Shown here piece by piece: positions 49,469 to 63,065 of a DNA stretch of 64,000 nt; the first letter of the stretch is position 1, and each line of letters opens with the position of its first letter. Origin of the DNA: Escherichia phage E26; sequence record MN655998.1; one strand, given 5' to 3'. The notes below the pieces were generated by a model, which saw nothing but the letters and a program-made list of their open reading frames with translations, searched no databases and was not told the DNA's origin. The position numbers and the translations under genes were made by a program.

Positions 49469-51520
49469 TTACATTTTAAATTTATCTGGCATTGCGTCTA
49501 CAGATACCAGATCAGCGATAAGCTGACGTAGAGTTGCCTTATCTGCTTTCTTACGTTCGGTTTTAGCTTCGCTAATGAAGCTGGAGAAAGACAGGTCAGA
49601 AGCAGGTTTAACAACACCTTCACGGATGAATGCATCACCGTCCGCGATCATCTCGCCAGATTCTTGTAATGCTGCCAGTTCATTTTTGTTCATAATATGT
49701 GCCTCAATGTAATAAGTTTCTTGTGAATCCGTCGATGCCGTAGCACGAGTTACCGTATCAAAGGATAACACAACACCGCGAGGAAGTAAAATCTCGCATT
49801 CTTTGTAAGCAAATGCTTTGTTACCTACTGGCAAGACAGGGATGTTTTCCGCGCCAGCAATGGAGAAAGCAACATTAGCGCCACCTTCACCGCGAGAGCC
49901 AGCCATAGAATCAACACCAGCAACGGCACTAGCCACGTTTGCATTCCAGCCGCCAAAAATGTTAGGTGCAAGGGAAGTGCTCACATAGTTTTTAAAGTAA
50001 AACGCTTTTTGCTTACGTGCAGTTTCCCACATTTGCGACCGGAAGTCCATACCACGATACAGAATAGTACCCGGATCAAGTTTAACTCCATAGTTGGAGA
50101 AGGCATTATCCAGTGCATCGCACATCTTGACCAATTCTTCTGGATCTGCGATGCCTTCAAACTCTTCCAGCTTACGATCAGTTAGGAAGTTGTTCATATT
50201 GATGTATGCTGCATCGGCATATTCGCTCAATACAAAACCTTCCGCGCCAGGCAGATCAAGATCAATATCTGCCATCATTTCACCCATGTTGCTAGCAATT
50301 GCTTCAAACATACCGGAAGCAACATTACGTAGGGCATCGGTTTTAATCTGTGTGATGTGACTACGCAGCATTTCAGCTTTTACATCTGCTGGCATAGACT
50401 GGTCTACTCGATCCATTGCCAGGGCGGTGATCTTGTTTTCGAATACTTCCTCGCTCATGATTTCTTTTAAGCGTTTGATTGATGCTGCGATAACTTCCGC
50501 AGACAACGGATCATATTGATCCTGAACTTTTACCAGTTCGCTTACTGCGTATTTTGCATCGGCTTCGCTTTCAAAAATAGTACGCATGAAACCATAGCGA
50601 GTGATAATATCACTTGTCCAGTCATTCAGAGAACGGGCGGTTGAACGTTCTAAGGCTTGACGATCAATCAGAGTATTAAACTGTTTCTTAGGTTCGGCTT
50701 CGGTGATATCTTCTTCTGGTTTAAGATTAATTTTTTCTGGATGATTCACGTAGTCGCTGTTATATGTCGCTTGAGTTTTCAGCATTTCTTCTTTAGTCAA
50801 ACGAGATTTAGCCGCTACGCGTTGTTCTGCTTCCGCGTTTCGTTCTTCTTCTGACACAAGACTAGCCGCATATGCCTCATCTTTAGTCAGAGATTCACCA
50901 GTAGCCTTAGATACCCAGCGATCACCTAAATCACTTTCTACTTTAGTGAACAAGGATTCATCAAGTTTAATCCCTTTAATCTTATCAATCGCCATCCCGC
51001 GACGCTTGACAACAACTAAAGCGATCTTTTTGCTGGTCATTACTTCCTGCTGGAATACTTCAAACTTCGGTGTACGACGCACCAAACGCTCTATAACGCG
51101 CTTAACCAGTTCGGTCTTACCTTTCATGCGGGATACGTTAAAACGGAACATAACAGCGTCTAATTGCGCTTTACGGGCTGTTTCCATAACCACATCAAAA
51201 GCACTTGCCATAACTGCAATCGGGTTATCGCCTAGACCATTTTTAAGCTGTACAATACGACCGCTTTTGTTCATTTCGCACAGTACAACATGTGCGGTTT
51301 TGTCACCCATACGAATGATTTTAGGTGTTTTGTTGGTGAAGTTACAAAGACGGACAATCACATCTTTATCGCGTGTCTGTACTGCAAAAAGCTGTTTAGG
51401 ATTCTGCTTAGGCTTTAAGCACTGTACCGGAGCAATACTGCCAAAGTTTTCTTCCTCTTCCGTCAACAGCCATTTCTCGAAAGATTCAATCATTAGATCG
51501 TCGATTTCTAAGTTAAACAT
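49469..51520 (-). CDS. alt: ADP-ribosyltransferase Alt
   Basis: 683 aa; motifs LYRGMDF, YVSTSLAPNIFGG and YKECEILLPRG; size as T4 Alt (682 aa). Confidence 0.85.
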   Translation of the reverse strand: MFNLEIDDLMIESFEKWLLTEEEENFGSIAPVQCLKPKQNPKQLFAVQTRDKDVIVRLCNFTNKTPKIIRMGDKTAHVVLCEMNKSGRIVQLKNGLGDNPIAVMASAFDVVMETARKAQLDAVMFRFNVSRMKGKTELVKRVIERLVRRTPKFEVFQQEVMTSKKIALVVVKRRGMAIDKIKGIKLDESLFTKVESDLGDRWVSKATGESLTKDEAYAASLVSEEERNAEAEQRVAAKSRLTKEEMLKTQATYNSDYVNHPEKINLKPEEDITEAEPKKQFNTLIDRQALERSTARSLNDWTSDIITRYGFMRTIFESEADAKYAVSELVKVQDQYDPLSAEVIAASIKRLKEIMSEEVFENKITALAMDRVDQSMPADVKAEMLRSHITQIKTDALRNVASGMFEAIASNMGEMMADIDLDLPGAEGFVLSEYADAAYINMNNFLTDRKLEEFEGIADPEELVKMCDALDNAFSNYGVKLDPGTILYRGMDFRSQMWETARKQKAFYFKNYVSTSLAPNIFGGWNANVASAVAGVDSMAGSRGEGGANVAFSIAGAENIPVLPVGNKAFAYKECEILLPRGVVLSFDTVTRATASTDSQETYYIEAHIMNKNELAALQESGEMIADGDAFIREGVVKPASDLSFSSFISEAKTERKKADKATLRQLIADLVSVDAMPDKFKM

Positions 51521-51587: not shown

Positions 51588-51800
51588 TTATAATGCACCA
51601 TCGAGCAATTGCTCTAATGTGTATCCTGAATAGTCTTTTTCAATCAGGATATATTTTCCTACTCGTTTAATACAACCGCGCATTTCAACGTATTCTGCGT
51701 AGTTGATGGTGCGAGTTGTTCCATCTTCTAGCAAAGCAGTACCGATTTCGTTAATGCGGTCATAAGTTACGTCGGTAATGATGATTTCGATGTTAGCCAT
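51588..51800 (-). CDS. hypothetical protein (70 aa)
   Basis: ORF with conserved cassette leader and RBS. Confidence 0.55.
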   Translation of the reverse strand: MANIEIIITDVTYDRINEIGTALLEDGTTRTINYAEYVEMRGCIKRVGKYILIEKDYSGYTLEQLLDGAL

Positions 51801-51865
51801 TTGATACTCCTTAGTAGTTCGTTTCGGTATGGGTGTATTATGATATACACCCTCTGTTATGTCAA
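51801..51865 (-). promoter_or_regulatory. PeSL-like early promoter/stem-loop cassette a
   Basis: minus strand TTGACA, 17 nt, CATAAT with GGGTGTAT..ATACACCC inverted repeat, then conserved leader CCGAAACGAACTAGGAGAATCAA-ATG. Confidence 0.6.
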
Positions 51866-51871
51866 CAACTT

Positions 51872-52051
51872 TTAGAACATTTTTGAAATTAATTCTGCTT
51901 TGATTTCGCAGAGAACATCTAAAGATTTCTCGTCACCCGCTTTTGCTGCTTCTGATTGCATTTTTGAAATGGCTTCAACGTAAGTGCAATTATAAGCCGC
52001 TTGAACTTTAGCGATTGCGATGATTGCCGATTCGATGGTTAAGTGTTTCAT
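51872..52051 (-). CDS. hypothetical small protein (58 aa)
   Basis: below ORF-track cutoff; ATG preceded by the cassette leader RBS (GGAGAATCAAAC). Confidence 0.45.
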   Translation of the reverse strand: MKHLTIESAIIAIAKVQAAYNCTYVEAISKMQSEAAKAGDEKSLDVLCEIKAELISKMF

Positions 52052-52112
52052 GTTTGATTCTCCTTTCGTTTCGGTATGTGTGCATTATAGGGGATCACCG
52101 ATCCCCTGTCAA
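52052..52112 (-). promoter_or_regulatory. PeSL-like cassette b
   Basis: TTGACA, palindromic 17-bp spacer GGGGATCGGTGATCCCC (two GATC sites), TATAAT, conserved leader; -35 overlaps the end of the DUF262 gene. Confidence 0.6.
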
Positions 52113-52640
52113 CAACTTTTTTGAATTATTTTTTAATTGCTCATCTTGTAATAGAGCAATAACATGCTGGCGATGTTCTTCCGATTGAGGCACACCGAAA
52201 AAGTTTGTTTTGTAGAAATATTCTAATCGATCTTCTCGTGTGCTCTCTTCCATCATGATCGCGGGTAGTCCGAGATTTCGGAAACGTCGCTTTTCTGCTG
52301 GCGTAAAATCACTGTAATACAACATAGAATCATCATTACCAGCAATGCTAAACTCATCTTTCATAAAGGAGAATATTGCGTTTAAACGCTGTTTACCGTC
52401 CACGATTTCGATCTCATAGCGAGAGCCATCATCAATCTTAGCCATTGCGATAGCACCAACCGGAAAATCATTAATCAGGTTTTCGATAAACATACGTTTG
52501 TTTTCGGTGTCCCATACCAAAGGACGCTGATAATCTGGGTTCATGTTGATATAGCCATCTTCTAACCACGCCTCATAAACAGAGATGACAAAGTTTTTAG
52601 TATTGGTATAGTAACGGCGTTTAGGCGTTAAACGGTTCAT
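52095..52640 (-). CDS. DUF262 / ParB-like nuclease-domain protein (GmrSD N-terminal-domain-like)
   Basis: 181 aa from ATG (MNRL, AGGAGA RBS); motifs DYQRPLVW and DGKQRL; ORF-track start at 52676 is TTG. Confidence 0.6.
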   Translation of the reverse strand: MNRLTPKRRYYTNTKNFVISVYEAWLEDGYINMNPDYQRPLVWDTENKRMFIENLINDFPVGAIAMAKIDDGSRYEIEIVDGKQRLNAIFSFMKDEFSIAGNDDSMLYYSDFTPAEKRRFRNLGLPAIMMEESTREDRLEYFYKTNFFGVPQSEEHRQHVIALLQDEQLKNNSKKLLTGDR

Positions 52641-52641
52641 G

Positions 52642-52971
52642 TTATAGTCTCCTGAATGGATCATCACGTAAATCAATATCTTTTAAGAACTCATCCCATG
52701 AATGGCGGATATTGTTCTTAATTCTCCAGATAAGCGCAGGGATTGAACGCTCTCCCATCTGGAAGTAAGGATCATATGATCCATATGCCCAATATGCTAC
52801 TACAATTCCACAATCAGCGCAATAATATTCTATTTCACTTGCTGGCGACCAAAGTCCATCAATATGATCGGTGATCCTGCTTTCGATGTTATGGCTATGG
52901 CAATCAGGGCAACGGATGCAATGACCTTGTTTATCGTAATTTGACGTTAGCGAATACTTAAACAATCTCAT
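52642..52971 (-). CDS. Zn-ribbon protein
   Basis: 109 aa; CxxC..H and CxxC pairs (CIRCPDCHSH, CADCG); start overlaps upstream stop by 1 nt. Confidence 0.5.
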   Translation of the reverse strand: MRLFKYSLTSNYDKQGHCIRCPDCHSHNIESRITDHIDGLWSPASEIEYYCADCGIVVAYWAYGSYDPYFQMGERSIPALIWRIKNNIRHSWDEFLKDIDLRDDPFRRL

Positions 52972-53687
52972 TATAGATCCTTATTTGCTTCAAATACTGC
53001 CTTTGCGAATCCTCGCGGGGTAAGTGACCTTATAGTCTTTGTTTTCGTTCCTTTCCCGCCTAGCTTAGAATGCTGTTTACTGTACCCTTTATTAATCTGC
53101 AACGGTTTCTTTTCTGGCATTATAAAGCCTTGTCCGGTCCATAAGCAAGTCCTTTTCGGGTACATATCACGGGCGGCAATATACTCAGGAAAAGTAGGAT
53201 GTTTATCATCTTCCGGCAAATAACCGCCATATTCCCACGGATGGAACATATAATCAGGCTTACGCCACATGCTAGAGATAACGCTTACAGGATTCTCTAT
53301 CATGTAGGGAACTCCTAGCCATTCACCCAAATAAGCGGTTATTTTAGCTGCCCGTACATCATGAACTTGAATCAATGGTCCTTGCTCTCGTTTCTTTCGT
53401 TCAAAGTGTGCAGCGCCACTAACAGCTAAATTGGTGCACGGTGGGAATGCAAATATAATATCCGGTTTCCCCCATTCAAGGTCCATTGCTCTTTCTAGCC
53501 AGTTCAAATCAATCCATGTGTTTACATATGTAATGTTTGGATGTTCAAATCGGGTATTATATTTTTTGTATGTACCGTGGTCGCCATCGTCAGCATTAAA
53601 GCAGATCACCTTATGACCTGCTTTAGCCCATTCTAACCCCATTATCCCCGATCCGTCAAAGTTGCAGAATATTAATTTTTGTTTCAC
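52971..53687 (-). CDS. compact DNA (cytosine-5)-methyltransferase-like protein
   Basis: 238 aa; motif I FDGSG, PC motif FPPCTNLAVSG, ENV-like MIENPV; GTG start overlapping upstream TGA with GGGGG as RBS. Confidence 0.5.
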   Translation of the reverse strand: MKQKLIFCNFDGSGIMGLEWAKAGHKVICFNADDGDHGTYKKYNTRFEHPNITYVNTWIDLNWLERAMDLEWGKPDIIFAFPPCTNLAVSGAAHFERKKREQGPLIQVHDVRAAKITAYLGEWLGVPYMIENPVSVISSMWRKPDYMFHPWEYGGYLPEDDKHPTFPEYIAARDMYPKRTCLWTGQGFIMPEKKPLQINKGYSKQHSKLGGKGTKTKTIRSLTPRGFAKAVFEANKDL

Positions 53688-53935
53688 GCTGCCCCCATTG
53701 GTTTGATAGTAACAGAATCTAAAAGACCTTTGTTAGCCAGTTCGCGGCAAGTTTTCAGATCCGCAACTTCCCAGCCAGCCGCAATCAGGTTATCAATCAG
53801 GCTGTTAGCAATTTCTTCGCTCATGAAAGAGCACTGTTTGCCGATGGTGTAGCGTACACGCTGTAATTTCAGTTTACGGAAGCCTTTAACGTTCAGGTCT
53901 TTAGCGATTTTCTTTGCGGTTTCGATGTTAGCCAT
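53684..53935 (-). CDS. hypothetical protein (83 aa), first gene of the operon
   Basis: ORF with cassette leader RBS. Confidence 0.5.
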   Translation of the reverse strand: MANIETAKKIAKDLNVKGFRKLKLQRVRYTIGKQCSFMSEEIANSLIDNLIAAGWEVADLKTCRELANKGLLDSVTIKPMGAA

Positions 53936-54004
53936 TGTTTGATTCTCCTAAGTGGTATCTCGTCTTGATGGTTGTATTGTAGGGGAGTTATCCTCCCCTG
54001 TCAA
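53936..54004 (-). promoter_or_regulatory. PeSL-like cassette c
   Basis: TTGACA, spacer GGGGAGGATAACTCCCC (inverted repeat), TACAAT, leader. Confidence 0.55.
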
Positions 54005-54018
54005 CACTTTTTATAAAA

Positions 54019-54186
54019 TTATTTGTTAATTTCCGGTGCGTTGCTTGGATAGTAACCTTCTTTAACTCCGAGGTATTTCGCAACCATCCCTACAATCTTC
54101 TGTGCTACTACAATGTCAAATTTCAGATAATCTTCACCGTAGGTTTCAATGATATATGCTTCACATGCTGCTTTAGTCTCGAACAT
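54019..54186 (-). CDS. small protein (55 aa), paralog copy 1
   Basis: MFETKAACEAYIIETYGEDYLKFDIVVAQKIVGMVAKYLGVKEGYYPSNAPEINK; near-identical second copy at 57287..57454. Confidence 0.6.
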   Translation of the reverse strand: MFETKAACEAYIIETYGEDYLKFDIVVAQKIVGMVAKYLGVKEGYYPSNAPEINK

Positions 54187-54249
54187 TTTGATTCTCCTAT
54201 TTCGTTTCGGTATGTGTGTATTATAGGGGATCTCCCGATCCCCGTCAAC
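54187..54249 (-). promoter_or_regulatory. PeSL-like cassette d
   Basis: TTGACG-like -35, spacer GGGGATCGGGAGATCCCC, TATAAT, leader. Confidence 0.55.
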
Positions 54250-54263
54250 AACTTTTTTTAAAA

Positions 54264-54545
54264 TTATTCGTGATTAGTTTCGATGTTGTGCATTTTGCAC
54301 CAGTTCAGCCAATCGCCCAGTTCTTGATAGTTGATGCTTTTATCTGCTGCCATCGTTTTTGTCTTGATACCCATATGTGCGTTATGAGTAAGCATTTTTA
54401 CAGTGAACTCGATTTTATCGCCTTTAGCTTTAACATCAACCAGTTTGGTCCACTGGCTACCAGCACCGCGAATGTTCATGCCAACGATGTTTCCGATGTA
54501 TGCTTCTTTGTTTTTCAGGATTTCGGTTGCTTTGATGAATTTCAT
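54264..54545 (-). CDS. hypothetical protein (93 aa)
   Basis: ORF with cassette leader RBS. Confidence 0.5.
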   Translation of the reverse strand: MKFIKATEILKNKEAYIGNIVGMNIRGAGSQWTKLVDVKAKGDKIEFTVKMLTHNAHMGIKTKTMAADKSINYQELGDWLNWCKMHNIETNHE

Positions 54546-54607
54546 TTTTGATTCTCCAGTTCGTTTCGGTATGGGTGTATTATGCTATGTTCTTACTTTG
54601 GTGTCAA
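54546..54607 (-). promoter_or_regulatory. PeSL-like cassette e
   Basis: TTGACA, 17 nt, CATAAT, leader; no spacer palindrome in this copy. Confidence 0.5.
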
Positions 54608-54615
54608 CAACTTTT

Positions 54616-54885
54616 TTAGATATTTTCAGAAATAAATTTTAAAACTTGACGTAAATGTTTCTCATCTTTGATAGTCGCCGGAAGTTCTTCTTTTACTTCC
54701 TGTGCAAGATAGATATTTCCGTTCCAAGTGAAAGATCCGTCTTCGTTTACGCGATAGCTGAACATCCACTCGCAATCATTTTCGATTTCATATACACACA
54801 GAAGAGTGTAATCTTCAAAGCTATTGAGTTCAAGGTCGAAGCCGTGACGTTTTGCAAAGTTGGTAGTGGTTTTAGTCAGTGCCAT
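54616..54885 (-). CDS. hypothetical protein (89 aa)
   Basis: ORF with cassette leader RBS. Confidence 0.5.
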   Translation of the reverse strand: MALTKTTTNFAKRHGFDLELNSFEDYTLLCVYEIENDCEWMFSYRVNEDGSFTWNGNIYLAQEVKEELPATIKDEKHLRQVLKFISENI

Positions 54886-54954
54886 TGTTTGATTCTCCTA
54901 AGTGGTATCTCGTTTCGATGTGTGTATTATGCTATAGGCGTGTTCTGGTGTCAA
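54886..54954 (-). promoter_or_regulatory. PeSL-like cassette f
   Basis: TTGACA, 17 nt, CATAAT, leader. Confidence 0.5.
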
Positions 54955-54978
54955 TTCTTTTTTTAAAATTTTATGCAA

Positions 54979-55004
54979 TAAAAAAGCCGACGCTAAGGTC
55001 GGCT
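54979..55004 (-). terminator. rho-independent terminator after paralog A1
   Basis: minus strand AGCCGAC-CUUAGC-GUCGGCU then UUUUUU. Confidence 0.6.
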
Positions 55005-55011
55005 AATAAAA

Positions 55012-55320
55012 TCATTTAGACAAATAATCATTCTGTGCAATCCGGTCAGCATGTTCCGGCGTTACGTCAATTGCAATCACTTTAACGCGTGCTTTCTTGC
55101 GACCTGGGTTTTCTCGTAGCCAGTGCGTGTGACCGTACAAATTTTTATACTTTGATGCTTCTTCGAAGGTACGGATCGGACCTGGGTAATCAGCGTAAAG
55201 GATCTCTAGATCTTCGGTGATGTAAAAATATACATCGTAATTGCTGTTCTCTAGCTTAAGCAGAGACTTTCGGAACATTGGGAGATTTTCGCGGGTAAAT
55301 TCAAAGATATTATCTTTCAT
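55012..55320 (-). CDS. HxHW-family paralog A1
   Basis: 102 aa from ATG (MKDN, GAGGA RBS); GHTHWL then VKVIAIDV. Confidence 0.55.
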   Translation of the reverse strand: MKDNIFEFTRENLPMFRKSLLKLENSNYDVYFYITEDLEILYADYPGPIRTFEEASKYKNLYGHTHWLRENPGRKKARVKVIAIDVTPEHADRIAQNDYLSK

Positions 55321-55344
55321 AGTATTATCCTCAATAGTTGGATG

Positions 55345-55367
55345 AAAAGGGGGGCTTAACGCCCCCA
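55345..55367 (-). terminator. rho-independent terminator (GGGGGCGUUAAGCCCCC family)
   Basis: same hairpin as at 51562..51582 and, on the other strand, after wac. Confidence 0.6.
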
Positions 55368-55371
55368 TATA

Positions 55372-55659
55372 TTAAAACAGTCCTTCCTGTACACCGTAAT
55401 AGAGTTCGTCGCTGATAATTTCATTAATGCGACGGTGTGCATATTCCTGATTTGCGAAGTTGTCAGCAAGTTCTACTTTAGTTTCTCCGTCATGAGTCCA
55501 TTTAGTGATAACTTTACCATCTGCAAATTTGAAGTTGAACTCTTTAGCTACCGCATCGCGTACCAGACGTGCAAACTTATTGTTGCGGATTGCATTGTCG
55601 GTTTCGTGTGCAGCGTGAGCGAATTTGTTAACTTTCAGAGTGATAGTAATGTATGCCAT
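55372..55659 (-). CDS. small protein, family C paralog 1
   Basis: 95 aa; RLVRDAVAKEFNFK matches REVRKALAKEFNTK in 58672..58983. Confidence 0.5.
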   Translation of the reverse strand: MAYITITLKVNKFAHAAHETDNAIRNNKFARLVRDAVAKEFNFKFADGKVITKWTHDGETKVELADNFANQEYAHRRINEIISDELYYGVQEGLF

Positions 55660-55734
55660 AATTTGATTCTCCTAGTTAGAAAGTGTATCTCGTTTCGATG
55701 GGTGTATTATGCTATACACCCGACCTTATGTCAA
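55660..55734 (-). promoter_or_regulatory. PeSL-like cassette g
   Basis: TTGACA, 17 nt, CATAAT flanked by GGGTGTAT..ATACACCC, leader. Confidence 0.55.
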
Positions 55735-55740
55735 CACTTT

Positions 55741-56019
55741 TTATAAAATAATTTTTTGATATTTTTCTATGATGTTCGTGTAAGTCACATCAACCGCTAG
55801 CACCGTTGCTTCGAATCCACCGTTTAGCCAATGGCTATGGTCATGATCGTGAAAGAAACCAAGACCAGTACGAAGACCTTCTTTATATTCTGCGCGTACA
55901 TTTAGATCATCATCGATAAACAGATAAAACCATGAATTTTTACTAGGATTGATGATACAACCTTTCAGATTAGGGAGAATATCACGACTAAGAATAAACT
56001 TATCACCTACTTTGAACAT
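55741..56019 (-). CDS. HxHW-family paralog A2
   Basis: 92 aa from ATG (MFKVGDKF, GAGGA RBS); HSHWL then VLAVDV. Confidence 0.55.
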   Translation of the reverse strand: MFKVGDKFILSRDILPNLKGCIINPSKNSWFYLFIDDDLNVRAEYKEGLRTGLGFFHDHDHSHWLNGGFEATVLAVDVTYTNIIEKYQKIIL

Positions 56020-56033
56020 AATATTTTCCTCAC

Positions 56034-56342
56034 TTATAAAGTTTGACCGTTGTTTTTCGCGTAATGCTGAATGCGTGCTTGATCTGCTTCCGCTGGTGAT
56101 AGATTCCATGCAACCACTACAACTTCTGACGCATCGTCATCCGTTTTTGATACCCAATGATTATGATTCATACAATTGTTTGCTATCGCGTGAGCAAATG
56201 ATTTCATCACTGGAGATGTATAATCATAGTAACGGATTTTCAGATTTTCATCAACATACAAGTAGATCGTATAAGGTTTATATTCAGTAACCAGTAACAG
56301 ACAGTTACGCAATTCTGGGAAAATCTTTTTAGTTAATTTCAT
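56034..56342 (-). CDS. HxHW-family paralog A3
   Basis: 102 aa from ATG (MKLTKK, GAGGA RBS); HNHWV then VVVVAWNL. Confidence 0.5.
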   Translation of the reverse strand: MKLTKKIFPELRNCLLLVTEYKPYTIYLYVDENLKIRYYDYTSPVMKSFAHAIANNCMNHNHWVSKTDDDASEVVVVAWNLSPAEADQARIQHYAKNNGQTL

Positions 56343-56343
56343 T

Positions 56344-56553
56344 TTATAATCCTCGGTCGCGGCTATAGTACACGGTACGCCATACAATTTCATGTTTCGT
56401 GTCGCTCCAGCACACGATCTCATTTACTCTTAAATCTTTGTTATCAACAAAAGATGAACATTGTGACGTTTCTTTCATCATTTTATCTGCTGTTTTCTCA
56501 TCAAATACAGCACAGATTTCTTTATACACTCGATAATCTTTAAACTTGCTCAT
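56344..56553 (-). CDS. small protein, family B tandem paralog 1
   Basis: 69 aa; MSKFKDYRVYKEICAVFDEKTADKMMKETSQCSSF against MSKFKDYKAYQQILRVYEPEFAEKMMEDASKCPSF in the neighbour. Confidence 0.55.
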   Translation of the reverse strand: MSKFKDYRVYKEICAVFDEKTADKMMKETSQCSSFVDNKDLRVNEIVCWSDTKHEIVWRTVYYSRDRGL

Positions 56554-56555
56554 AA

Positions 56556-56765
56556 TTAACACCAATCAAGAGTTTTTGAAAACACATCTATCCATTGTTG
56601 AGTATATGCGGTTTCTTTCCATGATACAATACCGGTAGAATAATGGTTTTTGTTTCCAGAAAAGGACGGGCATTTTGATGCATCTTCCATCATCTTTTCG
56701 GCGAACTCTGGTTCGTATACTCGCAAGATCTGTTGATATGCTTTGTAGTCTTTAAATTTGCTCAT
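56556..56765 (-). CDS. small protein, family B tandem paralog 2
   Basis: 69 aa; see paralog 1. Confidence 0.55.
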   Translation of the reverse strand: MSKFKDYKAYQQILRVYEPEFAEKMMEDASKCPSFSGNKNHYSTGIVSWKETAYTQQWIDVFSKTLDWC

Positions 56766-57030
56766 AATCGTTAACTACCTTATCAGCTTCTTTTATTGTT
56801 TTTACATCAACTGCGATAACCCGTAAAGGTTCGTCGTGGTTCCACCAATGATCGTGAATATCAGCTTGTGATTTATCACCAAAGGAATCACGAATATCAT
56901 TTTTACATTTATAGCTAATGTGACCGTCATAGTCAACATAAAGGTAATTATCGAAAATCGGCGTTTTTAAGATCATACCGAAAAATCTTTCTTTGTGTGT
57001 CTTATCCAGCGTTGCAGTAATTCGCATCAT
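56752..57030 (-). CDS. HxHW-family paralog A4
   Basis: 92 aa; HDHWW then VIAVDV; GAGGA RBS. Confidence 0.55.
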   Translation of the reverse strand: MMRITATLDKTHKERFFGMILKTPIFDNYLYVDYDGHISYKCKNDIRDSFGDKSQADIHDHWWNHDEPLRVIAVDVKTIKEADKVVNDYEQI

Positions 57031-57042
57031 AATATATTCCTC

Positions 57043-57222
57043 TTAGAAAGGGATGGTCATTTCTTGAGCTTGTACATTCTCGTTAGGATTAAACTTCATC
57101 CAACCGATATTGTCTACCAGCATATGTACATTTTTATCATACCCTACGTGAGTAGTCAACACTAAATGTGCTTTACCTTCAACGATGATTTCCATGTACT
57201 TCTGAACTTCGATAGCTTTCAT
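57043..57222 (-). CDS. hypothetical small protein (59 aa)
   Basis: below ORF-track cutoff; cassette leader RBS. Confidence 0.45.
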   Translation of the reverse strand: MKAIEVQKYMEIIVEGKAHLVLTTHVGYDKNVHMLVDNIGWMKFNPNENVQAQEMTIPF

Positions 57223-57283
57223 TTTGATTCTCCGTTTGTTGTCTTGATGGGAGTATCTTACTACTCCCTTTAATCATTGTCAA
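57223..57283 (-). promoter_or_regulatory. PeSL-like cassette h
   Basis: TTGACA followed by GGGAGTA..TACTCCC inverted repeat around a weak -10, leader. Confidence 0.45.
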
Positions 57284-57286
57284 CTA

Positions 57287-57454
57287 TTATTTGTTAATTT
57301 CCGGTGCGTTGCTTGGATAGTAACCTTCTTTAACACCCAGATATTTTGCAACCATTCCGGTGATCTTCTGTGCTACTACGATATCGAATTTCAGGTAGTC
57401 TTCACCGTGGGTTGCTACAATGTATGCTTCGCATTCTGCTTTAGTCTGGAACAT
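57287..57454 (-). CDS. small protein (55 aa), paralog copy 2
   Basis: MFQTKAECEAYIVATHGEDYLKFDIVVAQKITGMVAKYLGVKEGYYPSNAPEINK; last ~47 nt identical to copy 1. Confidence 0.6.
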   Translation of the reverse strand: MFQTKAECEAYIVATHGEDYLKFDIVVAQKITGMVAKYLGVKEGYYPSNAPEINK

Positions 57455-57518
57455 TTTTGATTCTCCTATATCTCGTTGGTATGTGTGTATTATAGGGGAT
57501 CTCCCGATCCCCTGTCAA
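57455..57518 (-). promoter_or_regulatory. PeSL-like cassette i
   Basis: TTGACA, spacer GGGGATCGGGAGATCCCC, TATAAT, leader. Confidence 0.6.
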
Positions 57519-57526
57519 CAACTTTT

Positions 57527-57835
57527 TTATTCTTCATCTTCATTTTTATCTTTATATGCGTACTTCATAAATTTGTCTGCTACTTTGTCCGCGTTTTCAG
57601 GTTCTACGTCTGACGCTAGGACAACAGCTAGTTCGGTTTTGTCGTTTCCATCATACCAATGATTATGAGTGTCGTTTTCTTTGATATAAAACGAATCATT
57701 TGGAGTTGTGCGACAATATACGTCTAAATTCCCATCGATATAAAAGATCCAATCCGAATACAAAATGATTGTTTTAGCCAGATTTTTATTGTCTCTTACA
57801 AAAGGTTCCGCGACAAATAGCTTAGTTTGTTCCAT
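57527..57835 (-). CDS. HxHW-family paralog A5
   Basis: 102 aa from ATG (MEQTK, GAGGA RBS); HNHWY then VVLASDV. Confidence 0.5.
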   Translation of the reverse strand: MEQTKLFVAEPFVRDNKNLAKTIILYSDWIFYIDGNLDVYCRTTPNDSFYIKENDTHNHWYDGNDKTELAVVLASDVEPENADKVADKFMKYAYKDKNEDEE

Positions 57836-57851
57836 AGTAATTTCCTCAAAA

Positions 57852-58043
57852 TTATACAGCTTCGTAAACTTCCCAATGTCCAACACCAGCACGCTTAACG
57901 AAAAGGTTTTCTTTGATGTTATTCATAAACGTCTGGATGGATTTAATGCGGTTGGAAGGTTTCCAGTCTTCGTTAGCATTGCGGCGATACATTATAACAT
58001 TACCAGATCGCTTATATTCAGCAACCATTTTAAGACCACACAT
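57852..58043 (-). CDS. hypothetical protein (63 aa)
   Basis: ORF with GAGGA RBS. Confidence 0.45.
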   Translation of the reverse strand: MCGLKMVAEYKRSGNVIMYRRNANEDWKPSNRIKSIQTFMNNIKENLFVKRAGVGHWEVYEAV

Positions 58044-58099
58044 AATAATATCCTCAATTTGTGGGAGAGTATTACCCTCCCAATTATTGTTATACTACA

Positions 58100-58402
58100 T
58101 TACGCAAAATGGCGTGTCAATGCTTCTTTTGCTGTTCCGCTAAGATTCTCGATCTCTCCTGGCATAACATCAACCGCCAGAACTTCTACAACATCCTCTG
58201 ATCCTAACCAGTGAGTATGACCTTTGTAGAACTTGATATCCCATTTAACGCTATCGCTAGCCCACCACACATCACCGTCGATAAAGTTGATGTAAAGCAC
58301 ACTACGACACATTGAATTAATTACTTTCAATACTGCGCCTTTCATCTCTTCCACGGTATGGTCTTCCATTTTGAAGACCTCACCTACCTGAACTTTTGCC
58401 AT
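58100..58402 (-). CDS. HxHW-family paralog A6
   Basis: 100 aa; GHTHWL then VLAVDV; GAGAGGTGA RBS. Confidence 0.55.
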   Translation of the reverse strand: MAKVQVGEVFKMEDHTVEEMKGAVLKVINSMCRSVLYINFIDGDVWWASDSVKWDIKFYKGHTHWLGSEDVVEVLAVDVMPGEIENLSGTAKEALTRHFA

Positions 58403-58419
58403 TTAGTCACCTCTCTTTA

Positions 58420-58599
58420 TTACATAACAATCACGCCAGCCGTTGAAAGTTGATGTTTCAACTGAGCATTTTCTGCTACCGTCAAATCAATGATTTCTTG
58501 TGACGCTGCAATCATATAGCCATTGGTGATATTGTTTTGCATCAGTTCAATGGTTTCTTCGTTGTAGCGGATTTTAGCGATGATTTCGTTGAAGTTCAT
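58420..58599 (-). CDS. hypothetical small protein (59 aa)
   Basis: below ORF-track cutoff; cassette leader RBS. Confidence 0.45.
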   Translation of the reverse strand: MNFNEIIAKIRYNEETIELMQNNITNGYMIAASQEIIDLTVAENAQLKHQLSTAGVIVM

Positions 58600-58663
58600 A
58601 ATTGATTCTCCTAGTTCGTTTCGGTATGTGTGTATTATAGGGGAGTTTAGCCTCCCCTGTCAA
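58600..58663 (-). promoter_or_regulatory. PeSL-like cassette j
   Basis: TTGACA, spacer GGGGAGGCTAAACTCCCC, TATAAT, leader. Confidence 0.6.
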
Positions 58664-58671
58664 CAACTTTT

Positions 58672-58983
58672 TTAAAGTTTTTCCATGATAACGGTCATAA
58701 TTACATCTTCTGCGCGAGCGGTCAGATTATCAGCGTCAGCATGTGGGCGGTTGGTTGTTACAGAGATAACACCGTTGCGCACTGGTTTGATATTGATATC
58801 AAGATGATCCGCGAAACGTTCGCCAGTTACAGAATGAATTTTGGTGTTAAATTCTTTTGCCAGTGCCTTGCGAACTTCACGAATCAGGATAGCGTTTTTC
58901 AGTTGGTTCTCCGCGCTCATGGTCTTCTGGGTGTTCATGGTTCCGTCGAAGTCAATCATTGGCAGCGTTACGATGTATTTCAT
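58672..58983 (-). CDS. small protein, family C paralog 2
   Basis: 103 aa; shares the VRxAxAKEFN motif with 55372..55659. Confidence 0.5.
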   Translation of the reverse strand: MKYIVTLPMIDFDGTMNTQKTMSAENQLKNAILIREVRKALAKEFNTKIHSVTGERFADHLDINIKPVRNGVISVTTNRPHADADNLTARAEDVIMTVIMEKL

Positions 58984-59057
58984 TTTTGATTCTCCGTTTA
59001 AGAAAGTGTGTTTCGTTTTGATGTGTGTAGTATAGGGGATCGGTGATCCCCTGTCAA
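58984..59057 (-). promoter_or_regulatory. PeSL-like cassette k
   Basis: TTGACA, palindromic spacer GGGGATCACCGATCCCC, TATACT, leader. Confidence 0.55.
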
Positions 59058-59070
59058 CAACTTTTTTGAA

Positions 59071-59415
59071 TTATTTTTTCATGAGCTTAATTGCTTCTTC
59101 CATAGCCAACACATTTCGATAGTTAGGGTATCGTGTTAGATCGTCATACATTCGCTTAAGGGTGGAAACTTCCTCAAACTCTGGGTTTTCTAGATACAGT
59201 TGAACAAATTGTTTCTCTATCATCTCTGCTTTTAGCTTGTCTGCTTGTTCCTGTTCATATGATTTAGTTGGACCCAACACCAACAAAATGATAAAGGTGA
59301 TCAACGGGCTAATGATCAACGATAGGATAACATAACCGATAACGCTACGGTTTAAACGGCTTGCATACATGCCTACCAGGAAAACAAAAAGGATATAGAT
59401 AAACAGAAAGAACAT
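59071..59415 (-). CDS. small membrane protein
   Basis: 114 aa; two N-terminal hydrophobic helices then charged tail. Confidence 0.5.
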   Translation of the reverse strand: MFFLFIYILFVFLVGMYASRLNRSVIGYVILSLIISPLITFIILLVLGPTKSYEQEQADKLKAEMIEKQFVQLYLENPEFEEVSTLKRMYDDLTRYPNYRNVLAMEEAIKLMKK

Positions 59416-59422
59416 ATAATGG

Positions 59423-59896
59423 TTACTCCTTATTTTCGCGCTCGTACTTTTCGAAATAAAATTCTACTGGCTGGTCATTAATTGACAGCAAGCCAAAGCG
59501 TTTAGCCGCTCGCAATCCCATATTGCGCTGAATGTACTTCTGGAAGTTCTCGCGTATACACTTACGCCAGTATTCTAAGCCCATACAGCTTTTATAAAGA
59601 TTGCATTGCACACACGCCGGATTCATGTTATCAAGTATATCATGTTCCGGTTTATGCATTCCTACAACCTTATACTTCCACGATCCATCATCATTACGGG
59701 CAATTCGTCCATTTTCATCATAGACTACCTTTGAGCGTCGCAATACTGGTTTGATGTGGTCTGCGTGCCAGCGATCCCCTAGTTCCTCGCCACAATAGGC
59801 ACAACGTCCACCATATTTCATTTTCAGGATCTGGCGTTGCTCTTTCTTTGACAATTTTTTAGGTTTAGGGGCTTTTGCCCCTTCATTATCACACAT
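59423..59896 (-). CDS. small HNH endonuclease
   Basis: 157 aa; HNH core CAYCGEEL..WHADHIKPV..NMNPACVQCN. Confidence 0.65.
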   Translation of the reverse strand: MCDNEGAKAPKPKKLSKKEQRQILKMKYGGRCAYCGEELGDRWHADHIKPVLRRSKVVYDENGRIARNDDGSWKYKVVGMHKPEHDILDNMNPACVQCNLYKSCMGLEYWRKCIRENFQKYIQRNMGLRAAKRFGLLSINDQPVEFYFEKYERENKE

Positions 59897-61385
59897 CGAA
59901 TACCTCTTTTACTGTATTTGCAGTGGTCTTGTCGTAGCGAATACGTTTGATGATTGGGAGAAATAAAGAGAACTCCGGTTCATCTTCTTTACGTGATTTG
60001 CTGCGGATATACCCGTTGCATGTCATCTCAATGACTTTTCCAATCAGGTTATGACGATCAGCCCATAACATTTCTCGGTCGAGTTCATTTCTACGATCGA
60101 ACGGAATTACACGTTCAATACCATCATCACCTTTTTCGGTTGTAGTGTCGGTTAATCCAGATCCGGTGTTAGTCATCATTCGTCCGCACGCACTACGGAC
60201 AGTAAAACCGCCTACCTTATTGGGGTCTTTACTATGCGGATATACATCAACAATTTCCGCGTCGAAGTCAATCACTTCTTTAAATTTAACCTGATCTTTA
60301 CTACGGCGATCTTCAAATACACCATGTAAATTTTTAAGGATAATACCTTCTAAGCCCATGTTTACATAGCGATGATATACTTCGCGAGCTTCGTCTATAT
60401 TGTTAACTACAGTGTTTTCGATTATCTGAACACGAGGATCGTTAAGTTCTTCAACAATCTGTTTTAGTTCTTCGAATCGATCTTTATATTGCTTCGTTGC
60501 TTTCTCGTTTCCGTAATACACATCACGGTCGATAACATCCCAGACAGTGTAAACAATACATTGGGCTTCTTCTTTTGGAATAGTTCCTTTCAGTGATTTG
60601 TTGAGGATACCATTTCCGGTCTGACGATCTGCAACAACGGATTCTTTTACTGCTTCCGCTACTGGAGTTAATGGCATTTCCTCTTCTTCAAATATCCATG
60701 ACAGAGTACCATCATAAACGCTCTCAACGAAGTTCTGCGCTGGTGTTTGTGAAAGGGTAGGCATATATACCAATTCGCCATCTAGAACAATTCCACGGCC
60801 TCGTAGACGCTCTAAAACCGCAAACAAATCATCAAGCCCTTGATAGGTATTACCTGAGCGGGTATAGATTGCTAATGTTTCCCCGTCAATATCAGCCATA
60901 CCACGAGCGCCATCGCTTTTAAGTTGTGCATACGCCGGATATTTGATATTGGCAATAGTCTTATCAGAACATGACGATGCAAGGTGGCACGGTTGCTGAG
61001 GAATCAGTTTCTTCCATACCTTGTTTGCAGTGGTAGCGGAACAGCCGCATTCCAGATCACGATTCAGGACCATCATCGCAACTTTAGCATCATCCTCTGA
61101 CAAGCAAGTCAGAGTATCGGTAACTAGCTGTAATGCTGCATTACCAGTTACTTGACGCGTGGCAAGTTTATTTTTAAAGACCTGTAATGCACCGGATAAA
61201 GACAATACAGACGAATAGCGAGATGGTTTATCGTATTTCTTTACGCCAAACGTAACCTGTTTGCAATATGCCAGATAAAAGCATTCTTTCAGCGTTTCAT
61301 TGCTCGCGGATTCTTTCAGGATCTTTTCTTTCAGCGATGTTTTGTCGGTTGCTGCAAGCTGATTAATGATATTAAGAATTGACAT
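59889..61385 (-). CDS. 30: ATP-dependent DNA ligase gp30
   Basis: 498 aa from ATG (MSIL); adenylation motif KSDG (AYAQLKSDGARG); EGIILKN, FLPI..R..DK; ORF-track start at 61391 is GTG. Confidence 0.95.
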   Translation of the reverse strand: MSILNIINQLAATDKTSLKEKILKESASNETLKECFYLAYCKQVTFGVKKYDKPSRYSSVLSLSGALQVFKNKLATRQVTGNAALQLVTDTLTCLSEDDAKVAMMVLNRDLECGCSATTANKVWKKLIPQQPCHLASSCSDKTIANIKYPAYAQLKSDGARGMADIDGETLAIYTRSGNTYQGLDDLFAVLERLRGRGIVLDGELVYMPTLSQTPAQNFVESVYDGTLSWIFEEEEMPLTPVAEAVKESVVADRQTGNGILNKSLKGTIPKEEAQCIVYTVWDVIDRDVYYGNEKATKQYKDRFEELKQIVEELNDPRVQIIENTVVNNIDEAREVYHRYVNMGLEGIILKNLHGVFEDRRSKDQVKFKEVIDFDAEIVDVYPHSKDPNKVGGFTVRSACGRMMTNTGSGLTDTTTEKGDDGIERVIPFDRRNELDREMLWADRHNLIGKVIEMTCNGYIRSKSRKEDEPEFSLFLPIIKRIRYDKTTANTVKEVFDV

Positions 61386-61851
61386 TTTCACCTCGTTTTG
61401 TTAAACGTTCACGAATATCATTGAGGATACTACAAAATTCCGATTCAGTCAATATAGTCTTTAACGGATCAGTTCCACCTATACTATGACGTAATTTCTT
61501 ATTTCCGGTCGAGAGTAATGCTTTACAAAATTCTGGGTTATTCCGTGCCATCGTAACAAATGCCAGATGTACCAGTCTGTAATAATGCTCACTCATTCGA
61601 TGAATCGGGCGACCCTGAAAATATAACATGTGATTCTCAATCTTTTCAGTTCTTCCGGTTCTTTTTGCTTTGCCACCATGCATCAAAAAGATTTCTCTTT
61701 GTCTCTGAGGGTTCTTAAATCTTAGCCCCTGTAAAAATCCTTCTGTGCTGTTAATATCGCAACCAAATAGACGGAATGGTCTTTTATTGAAATTACTCAA
61801 TTCACCAGATGGATAAGGTCCACCCGCATAGATATCAATTTCAGAAGTCAT
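61372..61851 (-). CDS. NADAR (YbiA-like, DUF1768) domain protein
   Basis: 159 aa; GELSNF...STEGFLQGLRF and HSIGGTD..L.....ILNDIRERL fit the YbiA/NADAR pattern. Confidence 0.5.
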   Translation of the reverse strand: MTSEIDIYAGGPYPSGELSNFNKRPFRLFGCDINSTEGFLQGLRFKNPQRQREIFLMHGGKAKRTGRTEKIENHMLYFQGRPIHRMSEHYYRLVHLAFVTMARNNPEFCKALLSTGNKKLRHSIGGTDPLKTILTESEFCSILNDIRERLTKRGENVNS

Positions 61852-62447: not shown

Positions 62448-63065
62448 TTATTTATATTTCGCGACCTTTGGATTTCTCCGCAGACCGGAATGTATTTGCG
62501 CTATACAACAATAAGAAACATTAAACATATCAGCTATAATTTGCTTCTTAACTTTTCCTTTAAGCCGCATTATTTCTTCGACTTGCGCATTTGTCAGTTT
62601 TGCCCGTGAGTGGTTTTCACCGACATTGTTATTGAGTCCAGTTCTAAATGAATGTCTCATATTTTCTAGTAAGGTTACTATTTCTAGATTCCACACATAA
62701 TTGCAGGTTTTTACACCATTGATGTGATTAACCTCAAGTCCGGTAACGTCTCCTAGAAATGCATTTGCTACAAGTCGATGTATCTTTTCGGCTTTAACTG
62801 AGATTTTACCATTGTCTTTTTGTTTTGACAATGTTGAATAATAATATCCATATCGGTCTAAAATTGGTTTTATTATTTTACCAGCACGTTTTTGTTTTAC
62901 GAGCTTAATATTACCGGGAGAAACTTCTCTATAAAATTCGATACTTCGGTCAATAGATCTCAATCTACCATAATTAGAGATTTCATACCACGGATAACCT
63001 ACAGCTTGTCTCCATTCTTCCGGCGCTGGTAATACGATATTATCATCTTTTGTTTCCATTGTCAA
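62448..63065 (-). CDS. HNH homing endonuclease (NUMOD4 + HNH type)
   Basis: 205 aa; WYEISNYGRLRS (NUMOD4-like) and VNHINGVKTCNYVWNLE (HNH) motifs. Confidence 0.75.
   Translation of the reverse strand: MTMETKDDNIVLPAPEEWRQAVGYPWYEISNYGRLRSIDRSIEFYREVSPGNIKLVKQKRAGKIIKPILDRYGYYYSTLSKQKDNGKISVKAEKIHRLVANAFLGDVTGLEVNHINGVKTCNYVWNLEIVTLLENMRHSFRTGLNNNVGENHSRAKLTNAQVEEIMRLKGKVKKQIIADMFNVSYCCIAQIHSGLRRNPKVAKYK

Follow-up and report, generated by a model that had tools for sequence, protein, structure and literature searches.

Small-gene paralogues in the promoter-early stem-loop cassette array of Escherichia phage E26 are probably old, and one pair still exchanges sequence

Promoter-early stem-loops (PeSLs) were defined by Arbiol et al (2010; PMC2839356) at the hyperplastic region 3 (HPR3) of the phages RB49 and phi1, and the modular shuffling that they mediate in these phages was described in the same work and by Comeau et al (2014; PMC4122927). 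Promoter activity was measured for PeSL206/205 and in vivo terminator activity for PeSL211/210, and mini-circles around ORF192 and ORF210, formed by PeSL-to-PeSL recombination, were sequenced (PMC2839356). Neither PeSL paper (PMC2839356, PMC4122927) mentions paralogues, duplication or gene conversion, and a literature search on Krischvirus paralogues or phage gene conversion found nothing relevant. Here, we analysed a stretch of 64,000 nucleotides (hereafter, the window) from Escherichia phage E26 (MN655998.1), in which an initial annotation had noticed three pairs of related small genes, here named A, B and C, within an array of repeat-headed cassettes, and had taken them as signs of recent duplication. 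The window belongs to a Krischvirus (RB49-like T4-type coliphage), and its cassette array is an ordinary, already known instance of the PeSL system published for the RB49-like phages. In the reading that we consider likely, the pairs are old, genus-wide paralogues (or cassettes acquired twice) in HPR3, both the PeSLs and the paralogues recombine, and the 3' third of the A genes is homogenised. Among the three pairs, only the A pair, encoding 55-aa proteins, still exchanges sequence.

The 5.5 kb around the paralogue sets showed 92–96% identity to 58 phage records, all of them Krischvirus (coliphages and Shigella phages). HPR3 of E26 spans 51.8–59.1 kb and is flanked by the genes of the Alt ADP-ribosyltransferase (49469-51520) and DNA ligase (59889-61391). 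All genes of the region are on the minus strand and map gene for gene to ORF190–ORF211 of RB49, the locus at which the PeSLs of RB49 and phi1 lie, and the motif anatomy is also the same. At least 11 PeSLs, including the orthologues of the tested RB49 PeSL206/205 and PeSL211/210, divide the small early genes of the array into short transcription units, and the C2 gene is the ORF210 of the mini-circle. What E26 adds to the published system is the gene families (A, B and C with two members each and H, the HxHW family, with six), paralogous coding sequence (CDS) as a substrate of recombination, and a chimeric PeSL. A profile search over all open reading frames (ORFs) of the window found two A, two B, two C and six HxHW members and none elsewhere.

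The analogy with integrons was drawn by Arbiol et al themselves (PMC2839356), and integron cassette arrays do resemble that of E26 in having small, mostly ORFan genes split by repeats that mediate the excision of circles. Integron cassettes are, however, usually promoterless, whereas the repeats between the cassettes of E26 are sigma-70 promoters with a leader and a Shine-Dalgarno (SD) sequence, by which each cassette is self-expressed, and exchange is by general homologous recombination. The integron reading was therefore rejected, because the inter-cassette repeats are promoters and not attC sites. The existing annotations of the relatives show no recombinase in this region, with no dedicated test for IntI or attI, and no integrase was reported in RB49 or phi1 (PMC2839356).

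The A pair and its 3' ends are located as follows.
54019..54186, minus strand: A1, a 55-aa early gene, orthologue of RB49 ORF191, phrog_8009.
57287..57454, minus strand: A2, a 55-aa paralogue of A1, orthologue of RB49 ORF205.
54018..54066, minus strand: A1 3' tail, 48 nt of CDS plus 1 nt, identical to the A2 tail and within the putative gene-conversion zone (CDS positions 106–168).
57286..57334, minus strand: A2 3' tail, identical to the A1 tail.

A1 and A2 were confirmed as homologues, each behind a PeSL of its own, with the figures of the initial annotation amended from about 85% to 89% protein identity (49/55 aa) and from 47 to 48 nt for the identical end. At the nucleotide level, 145/168 positions (86%) were identical, and all 23 differences lay within nt 1–120. 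The final 48 nt, stop codon included, and 1 nt past it were the same in both copies; with 23 differences among 168 nt, an identical run of at least 48 nt has a probability of 0.005. The repeat unit comprises the PeSL and the ORF (~245 nt, roughly 88% identity), and its two copies are 3,268 bp apart.

The identical 3' end could be taken as the undiverged remainder of a recent, ongoing in-genome duplication by cassette recombination, as had been supposed, and the 86% nucleotide identity, the 48-nt tail and the stem-loop shared by both A PeSLs in E26 agree with that explanation. The age and exchange of the A genes were compared in 13 fetched loci, in which the gene order was the same and each gene copy was 96–100% identical to its positional orthologue. 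By tblastn, A was found twice in ~50 of ~58 Krischvirus genomes, at the same two positions, and in single copy in six, which argues against a recent event, as do the 12 fixed copy-specific substitutions between A1 and A2, all within CDS positions 7–99. The divergence of A1 from A2 was 18.7% in the 5' part, against 0.6–1.8% among orthologues, and 7.2% in the tail. Fourteen of the 20 codons that differ are synonymous and six are non-synonymous, with high synonymous divergence in the first 40 codons, which indicates that the two copies have diverged for long under purifying selection. Furthermore, the tails of the two copies are not identical in the other genomes (1–7 differences), and polymorphism is higher in the tail than elsewhere in the gene. 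The members of B, C and H are only 20–43% identical, which refutes recent duplication for these families. Taken as a whole, recent duplication is a very improbable account of the pairs.

The pattern of variation in the 3' part of the A genes suggested another origin of the identical tail. No fixed difference between A1 and A2 was found beyond CDS position 99. Precisely the A2 allele segregates among the A1 sequences at positions 108, 114 and 120; both copies vary at positions 141 (A/G/T) and 153 (A/G), three two-site haplotypes are common to A1 and A2, and the A1 tail of LF73P4 is identical to the A2 tail of SFHK24. The polymorphism among A1 orthologues was 4.6% in the tail versus 0.6% in the 5' part (~8-fold). 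The mosaic boundaries vary, the converted extent being different in LF73P4, G2494, Cognac and JSE, and A2 of LF73P4 carries A1-type bases at positions 69–75, so exchange has gone in both directions. In a nearest-neighbour test over 24 A sequences, cross-copy mixing was seen for 5/24 in the tail and 0/24 in the 5' part. This region-specific drop in divergence, together with the shared polymorphisms and haplotypes, indicates a recurrent ectopic gene conversion that probably homogenises the 3' third of A1 and A2 and would thereby account for the identical 48-nt tail of E26. The tail is a local state of a segment still exchanged between two old copies and no trace of a recent duplication. Mosaic divergence, shared polymorphisms and variable tract ends are also the marks of ectopic (interlocus) gene conversion in bacterial and eukaryotic multigene families; unlike those cases, the A genes belong to a lytic phage, are only 168 nt long and 3.3 kb apart, and the exchange is limited to a stretch of ~60 nt.

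Selection on the nucleotide sequence itself, for an RNA element or a part of the next promoter, might also keep the two tails alike. The tail does abut the next PeSL and encodes the conserved peptide GVKEGYYPSNAPEINK. However, the PeSL that follows A1 and the one that follows A2 are only 63% identical, no Rfam match for an RNA element in the A tail was obtained from a search of the whole window, and across genomes no part of A1 varies more than the tail, whose variants are synonymous and common to A2. Because the pattern of the tail is the signature of ectopic gene conversion, nucleotide constraint was ruled out as an extremely unlikely explanation.

The products of recombination in this region were seen in the relatives. 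Cognac has one A gene, in which H5, the PeSL and the leader are of A2 type and the CDS is of A1 type from codon 3 onward. The crossover lies inside a 22-nt identical block of SD and ATG, and the 3.27 kb between the A copies (11 genes) has been lost; the zone of this crossover, from SD/ATG to the -10 element, is the same that was sequenced in the mini-circles of RB49 and phi1 (PMC2839356). In JK32, the A1 cassette is precisely missing, and in MIZ4, a block ending with A1 is missing; the same single-copy tblastn pattern suggests that MIZ5, Brandy and UPWr_E1 likewise retain only A2. The gene g51872 is missing from four phages, the junction showing a 42–56-nt PeSL overlap; JK32, SFHK24 and one IMG contig lack C2, either alone or together with g59071, and the PeSL upstream of A1 occurs in three states: empty, with ORF192 (RB49, G2494) or with JSE_00199. 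In all, PeSL-bounded insertions and deletions were observed in 12 relatives. The proposal that the array is shuffled by recombination at the cassette repeats was thus borne out, as already published for RB49 and phi1 (PMC2839356). The A1 and A2 units might even work as a recombination hinge, with ends kept alike by conversion, through which the 3.27-kb block of 11 genes would be reversibly excised, lost, amplified or transferred as a mini-circle; we regard this extension as unlikely.

Two differences of another kind were recorded in the same region. Most relatives have ORF189.1 (246 nt) between ORF190 (g53684) and the DNA methyltransferase gene (g52971), and E26 lacks it at 53671-53690, as do JSE and JK32; the junction in E26 is a start/stop overlap with no PeSL. 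In the contig IMG_UViG_3300045988_033703 (L004, positions 8428-8655), ~1.97 kb is deleted from inside H2 to inside g53684, which removes C1, H1, g54616, g54264 and A1 and makes a fusion ORF possible.

The PeSLs and terminators that frame the pairs are located as follows.
54187..54266, minus strand: PeSL of A1, with TTGACG, stem-loop GGGGATCGGGAGATCCCC, TATAAT, the conserved leader, GGAGAATCAA and ATG.
57455..57529, minus strand: PeSL of A2, chimeric, orthologue of the tested RB49 PeSL206/205 (PMC2839356).
55660..55743, minus strand: PeSL of C1, with stem-loop GGGTGTAT..ATACACCC overlapping the -10 element.
58984..59073, minus strand: PeSL of C2, orthologue of RB49 PeSL211/210, an in vivo terminator (PMC2839356).
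57223..57289, minus strand: PeSL variant heading the six-gene operon g57043-H4-B2-B1-H3-H2, with TTGACA..TAAGAT and a stem-loop over the -10 element.
55349..55366, minus strand: intrinsic terminator after C1, GGGGGCGTTAAGCCCCCC plus a T run.
54985..55004, minus strand: intrinsic terminator downstream of H1, ahead of the g54616 promoter.

On the minus strand, a PeSL begins with an A-rich tract that contains a stop codon; then come TTGACA, a spacer of 17–18 nt that is usually a GGGG..CCCC hairpin, TATAAT or CATAAT, the leader ACACACATACCGAAACGA, GGAGAATCAA and ATG. A promoter scan located ten sigma-70 sites with 11–12/12 matches, every one of them on the minus strand, in the interval 51.8–59.1 kb. 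The window contains 11 copies of GGAGAATCAA, where 0.16 would be expected, and ten of the 11 are inside the cassette region. Stem-loops of -12 to -15 kcal/mol (z -2.6 to -4.3) were found at 7/9 promoters tested. The pairwise identity of PeSLs is 58–92%, the A1 and A2 PeSLs being 92% identical, and repeat families D1–D4 were distinguished. The features by which a PeSL can be tested on sequence were all present, namely a sigma-70 promoter, a G/C stem-loop between, over or beside the -35 and -10 elements, an AT-rich tract with SD and ATG, and a location at a hyperplastic site, ahead of ORFans, with insertions and deletions between close relatives. By orthology to the RB49 and phi1 experiments, the PeSLs of E26 would be expected to have promoter and terminator activity and to form mini-circles (PMC2839356); the RB49 orthologue of the A2 promoter gave ~13,000 Miller units (PMC2839356). 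Because strong early promoters drive all the genes, we infer that they serve as early accessory genes in host takeover or anti-defence. It was also noticed that the 5' untranslated region of the PeSL leaders (51800-59075), from the -10 element to the SD (ACACACATACCGAAACGA and variants), is conserved about as well as the promoter.

The A2 PeSL of E26 (57455-57529) unites the A1-type hairpin GGGGATCGGGAGATCCCC with a leader of A2 type. Neither the 12 relatives compared nor IMG/VR contained this chimera, a result suggestive of a lineage-specific PeSL-to-PeSL exchange.

The B pair and the HxHW genes are located as follows.
56344..56553, minus strand: B1, 69 aa, MSKFKDY, RB49 ORF201, allele B1a, phrog_8471.
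56556..56765, minus strand: B2, 69 aa, MSKFKDY, RB49 ORF202, tandem partner 2 nt upstream of B1.
55012..55320, minus strand: H1 (HxHW), RB49 ORF197.
55741-56019, 56034-56342, 56752-57030, 57527-57835 and 58100-58402, minus strand: the other five HxHW members found by profile search (RB49 ORF199, 200, 203, 206 and 208).

The tandem pair of 69-aa MSKFKDY proteins at 56344..56765 was upheld, with 38–42% identity, a BLASTP E-value of 1e-16 and a shuffle P of 3e-14, and the match was still significant when the shared first 8 residues were left out (P = 2e-10). B1 and B2 lie inside the six-gene operon g57043-H4-B2-B1-H3-H2 with no PeSL or promoter between them. B was found twice, in tandem, in 53/56 genome records, and the family is confined to Krischvirus. 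Because no PeSL separates the two copies, which share one operon, the B pair did not arise through the cassettes but by ordinary tandem duplication within that operon, after which B1 diverged into two allelic forms. The initial annotation had taken duplication and shuffling to be consistent with cassette-mediated recombination, which fits the PeSL-bounded insertions and deletions of the relatives and fails for the B pair. The allelic forms of B1 are 59–63% identical in protein, B1a occurring in E26, RB49, LF73P4 and Delraymugoa and B1b elsewhere, and a like dimorphism was seen in H5 and H4. JSE is without B1 and has other HxHW members in place of H2 and H3. The dimorphism of B1 and H, together with the gene content of JSE, points to allele replacement at fixed positions. 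The HxHW members are mutually 20–31% identical.

The C pair is located as follows.
55372..55659, minus strand: C1, 95 aa, RB49 ORF198, phrog_7474, with a predicted beta-alpha-beta-beta-alpha fold.
58672..58983, minus strand: C2, 103 aa, RB49/phi1 ORF210, phrog_7474.

The VRxAxAKEFN motif that had been noticed in 55372..55659 and 58672..58983 was found in both as VR(D/K)A(V/L)AKEFN, and the end-to-end identity was 27–34%. The pairwise evidence is weak (E-value of 5e-4 in a tiny database; shuffle P = 2e-4). Both proteins, however, scored e-43 with the phrog_7474 profile; the Gaprivervirus protein VR20_140 matched C1 (45%) as well as C2 (32%), and the 101-aa protein P0009 has a C2-like N-terminus and a C1-like C-terminal SDELYYGV. 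The BFVD model of RB49 ORF210 superposed on the model of C1 with a template modelling score of 0.64 and a probability of 0.97. The homology of C1 and C2 is therefore supported by the shared phrog_7474, the two bridging proteins and the similar independent structure models. Taking the three pairs together, the alignments and shuffle tests on trimmed sequences rejected similarity of the leader alone as their explanation, and the copies are homologous beyond the leader.

C1 was found in 56 records and C2 in 43, C2 being missing from ~15 Krischvirus genomes, and large-database searches for C returned only 3–4 clusters. The C pair consists of two deeply diverged single-gene cassettes, and their origin is too diverged to trace. 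The orthologue of C2, ORF210, is one of those shown experimentally to form PeSL mini-circles (PMC2839356). In RB49, but neither in E26 nor in the other relatives, this gene (L001, 7311-7640) has 18 nt duplicated in tandem and in frame, so that ERFADH occurs twice.

The predicted structure of the C proteins, modelled from a 5-sequence alignment with a predicted local distance difference test score (pLDDT) of 79, may have a DinI-like fold (PDB 7ywa_A), by structure only, and tautomerase-fold proteins score almost as well as DinI. DinI is a modulator of RecA filaments, and from the modelled fold, the C proteins might, though we regard this as unlikely, modulate recombination of the RecA/UvsX type. 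At the sequence level, a DinI relationship was rejected: a Pfam search with the C family at E ≤ 10 gave only noise, DinI (PF06183) not being among the matches, and hhalign of C against the E. coli DinI sequence gave a probability of 0.4%. A PDB sequence search with the C profile at E ≤ 10 gave no match. A eukaryotic mucin with SEA repeats that matched in the C search was rejected as a chance match inflated by repeats.

The relative timing of the families was obtained from a distant relative, the metagenomic contig ENA ERZ27235406 k119_4708 (L015), in which the ligase-to-Alt region contains PeSLs and the cassette order is shuffled. It has one B, one C1-type gene and two H, and neither A nor C2, which places the expansions after the split from this lineage and before the radiation of the genus. 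A 298-nt "intergenic" stretch of the same contig (5327-5624) encodes a CxxC..CxxC peptide resembling g52642, possibly a pseudogene or a missed gene.

The A protein was found in only 5 clusters in large-database searches and at only two loci in IMG/VR. Homologues with 72–74% identity occur in unrelated siphophages of ~45 kb (Swiduovirus and Salmonella siphophages), among them Escherichia phage swi2 (L014, 2001-2156) and the Salmonella phages SeSz-2, D10 and Pu29. In swi2, the homologue lies in a two-gene unit with a promoter-like site and a terminator, adjoins the large terminase and is without a PeSL. The morons of lambdoid phages, as reportedly described by Hendrix and co-workers in 2000, are single accessory genes with their own promoter and terminator. 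The cassettes of E26 resemble them in being accessory genes so equipped, and the siphophage homologue of A stands in such a unit; unlike in morons, the conserved PeSLs of E26 are themselves the recombination sites.

These distributions raise the possibility that the members of the pairs are xenologues, captured independently as cassettes at different PeSLs, for example as mini-circles. The siphophage homologues of A in moron-like units, the closer similarity of C1 to the Gaprivervirus protein (45%) than to C2, the absence of C2 from ~15 Krischvirus genomes and from the distant contig, and the proposal of PeSL cassettes as transfer vehicles (PMC2839356) all agree with such a history, and because C1 is nearer to the Gaprivervirus homologue than to C2, separate acquisition is a live alternative for the C copies. 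Against it, every foreign homologue found is far more distant from A1 and A2 than these two are from one another (89% aa), B1 and B2 are adjacent in one operon without a cassette boundary in a family confined to Krischvirus, and no donor lineage was identified for any copy. As an explanation of the pairs in general, independent capture therefore appears rather unlikely.

In the preferred reading, the old paralogues of HPR3 would have arisen once more distant relatives had split off but before the genus radiated, A as a whole PeSL and ORF unit present twice, B by a local tandem duplication and C as deeply diverged single-gene cassettes, and purifying selection would keep all pairs as early accessory genes. 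We infer the direction and mechanism of the original duplications; that of A fits an unequal crossing-over between PeSLs or a PeSL mini-circle re-inserted at a second PeSL. Homologous recombination of the phage, needing only tens of base pairs of identity, would act on the PeSLs and on the paralogues themselves. PeSLs would swap parts, and crossovers between direct repeats would delete the intervening cassettes, which can re-insert by the published mini-circle route (PMC2839356).

Several observations weigh against this account. In-genome duplication and the acquisition of a second cassette from a co-infecting phage are indistinguishable, and homologues of A and C occur outside the genus, in unrelated siphophages and in Gaprivervirus, respectively. 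Gene conversion was read from a segment of 63 nt, in which few sites vary, in 13 genomes. The hairpin is lacking at 2/9 promoters tested (those of g54616 and g54264), and some insertions and deletions are not PeSL-bounded (ORF189.1 and the L004 deletion). The pair proteins had no Pfam, PDB or Rfam match in the searches run; the Pfam search covered ten proteins of the region, with no significant match, and the Rfam search the whole window, with none.

Outside the array, a 205-aa ORF resembling HNH/NUMOD homing endonucleases was noticed at 62448-63065 on the minus strand. It is absent, with a 640-nt gap, in Phi1, Cognac and one IMG contig, and this free-standing endonuclease is a presence/absence polymorphism.

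What is new here is minor: the ORFans of the cassettes form a few families, A1 and A2 undergo ectopic conversion, as the sequence patterns indicate, and the A repeats gave rise to a natural 3.27-kb deletion. These findings carry little weight beyond the field and are useful for understanding the genome plasticity of T4-type phages. If the A units did work as a hinge, heterogeneity in copy number and gene content would be expected for host-adaptation genes. The A conversion and the Cognac deletion suggest that paralogous coding sequence, and not the PeSLs alone, is a substrate of recombination in these phages, and the pattern of divergence provides a relative timing of the family expansions.

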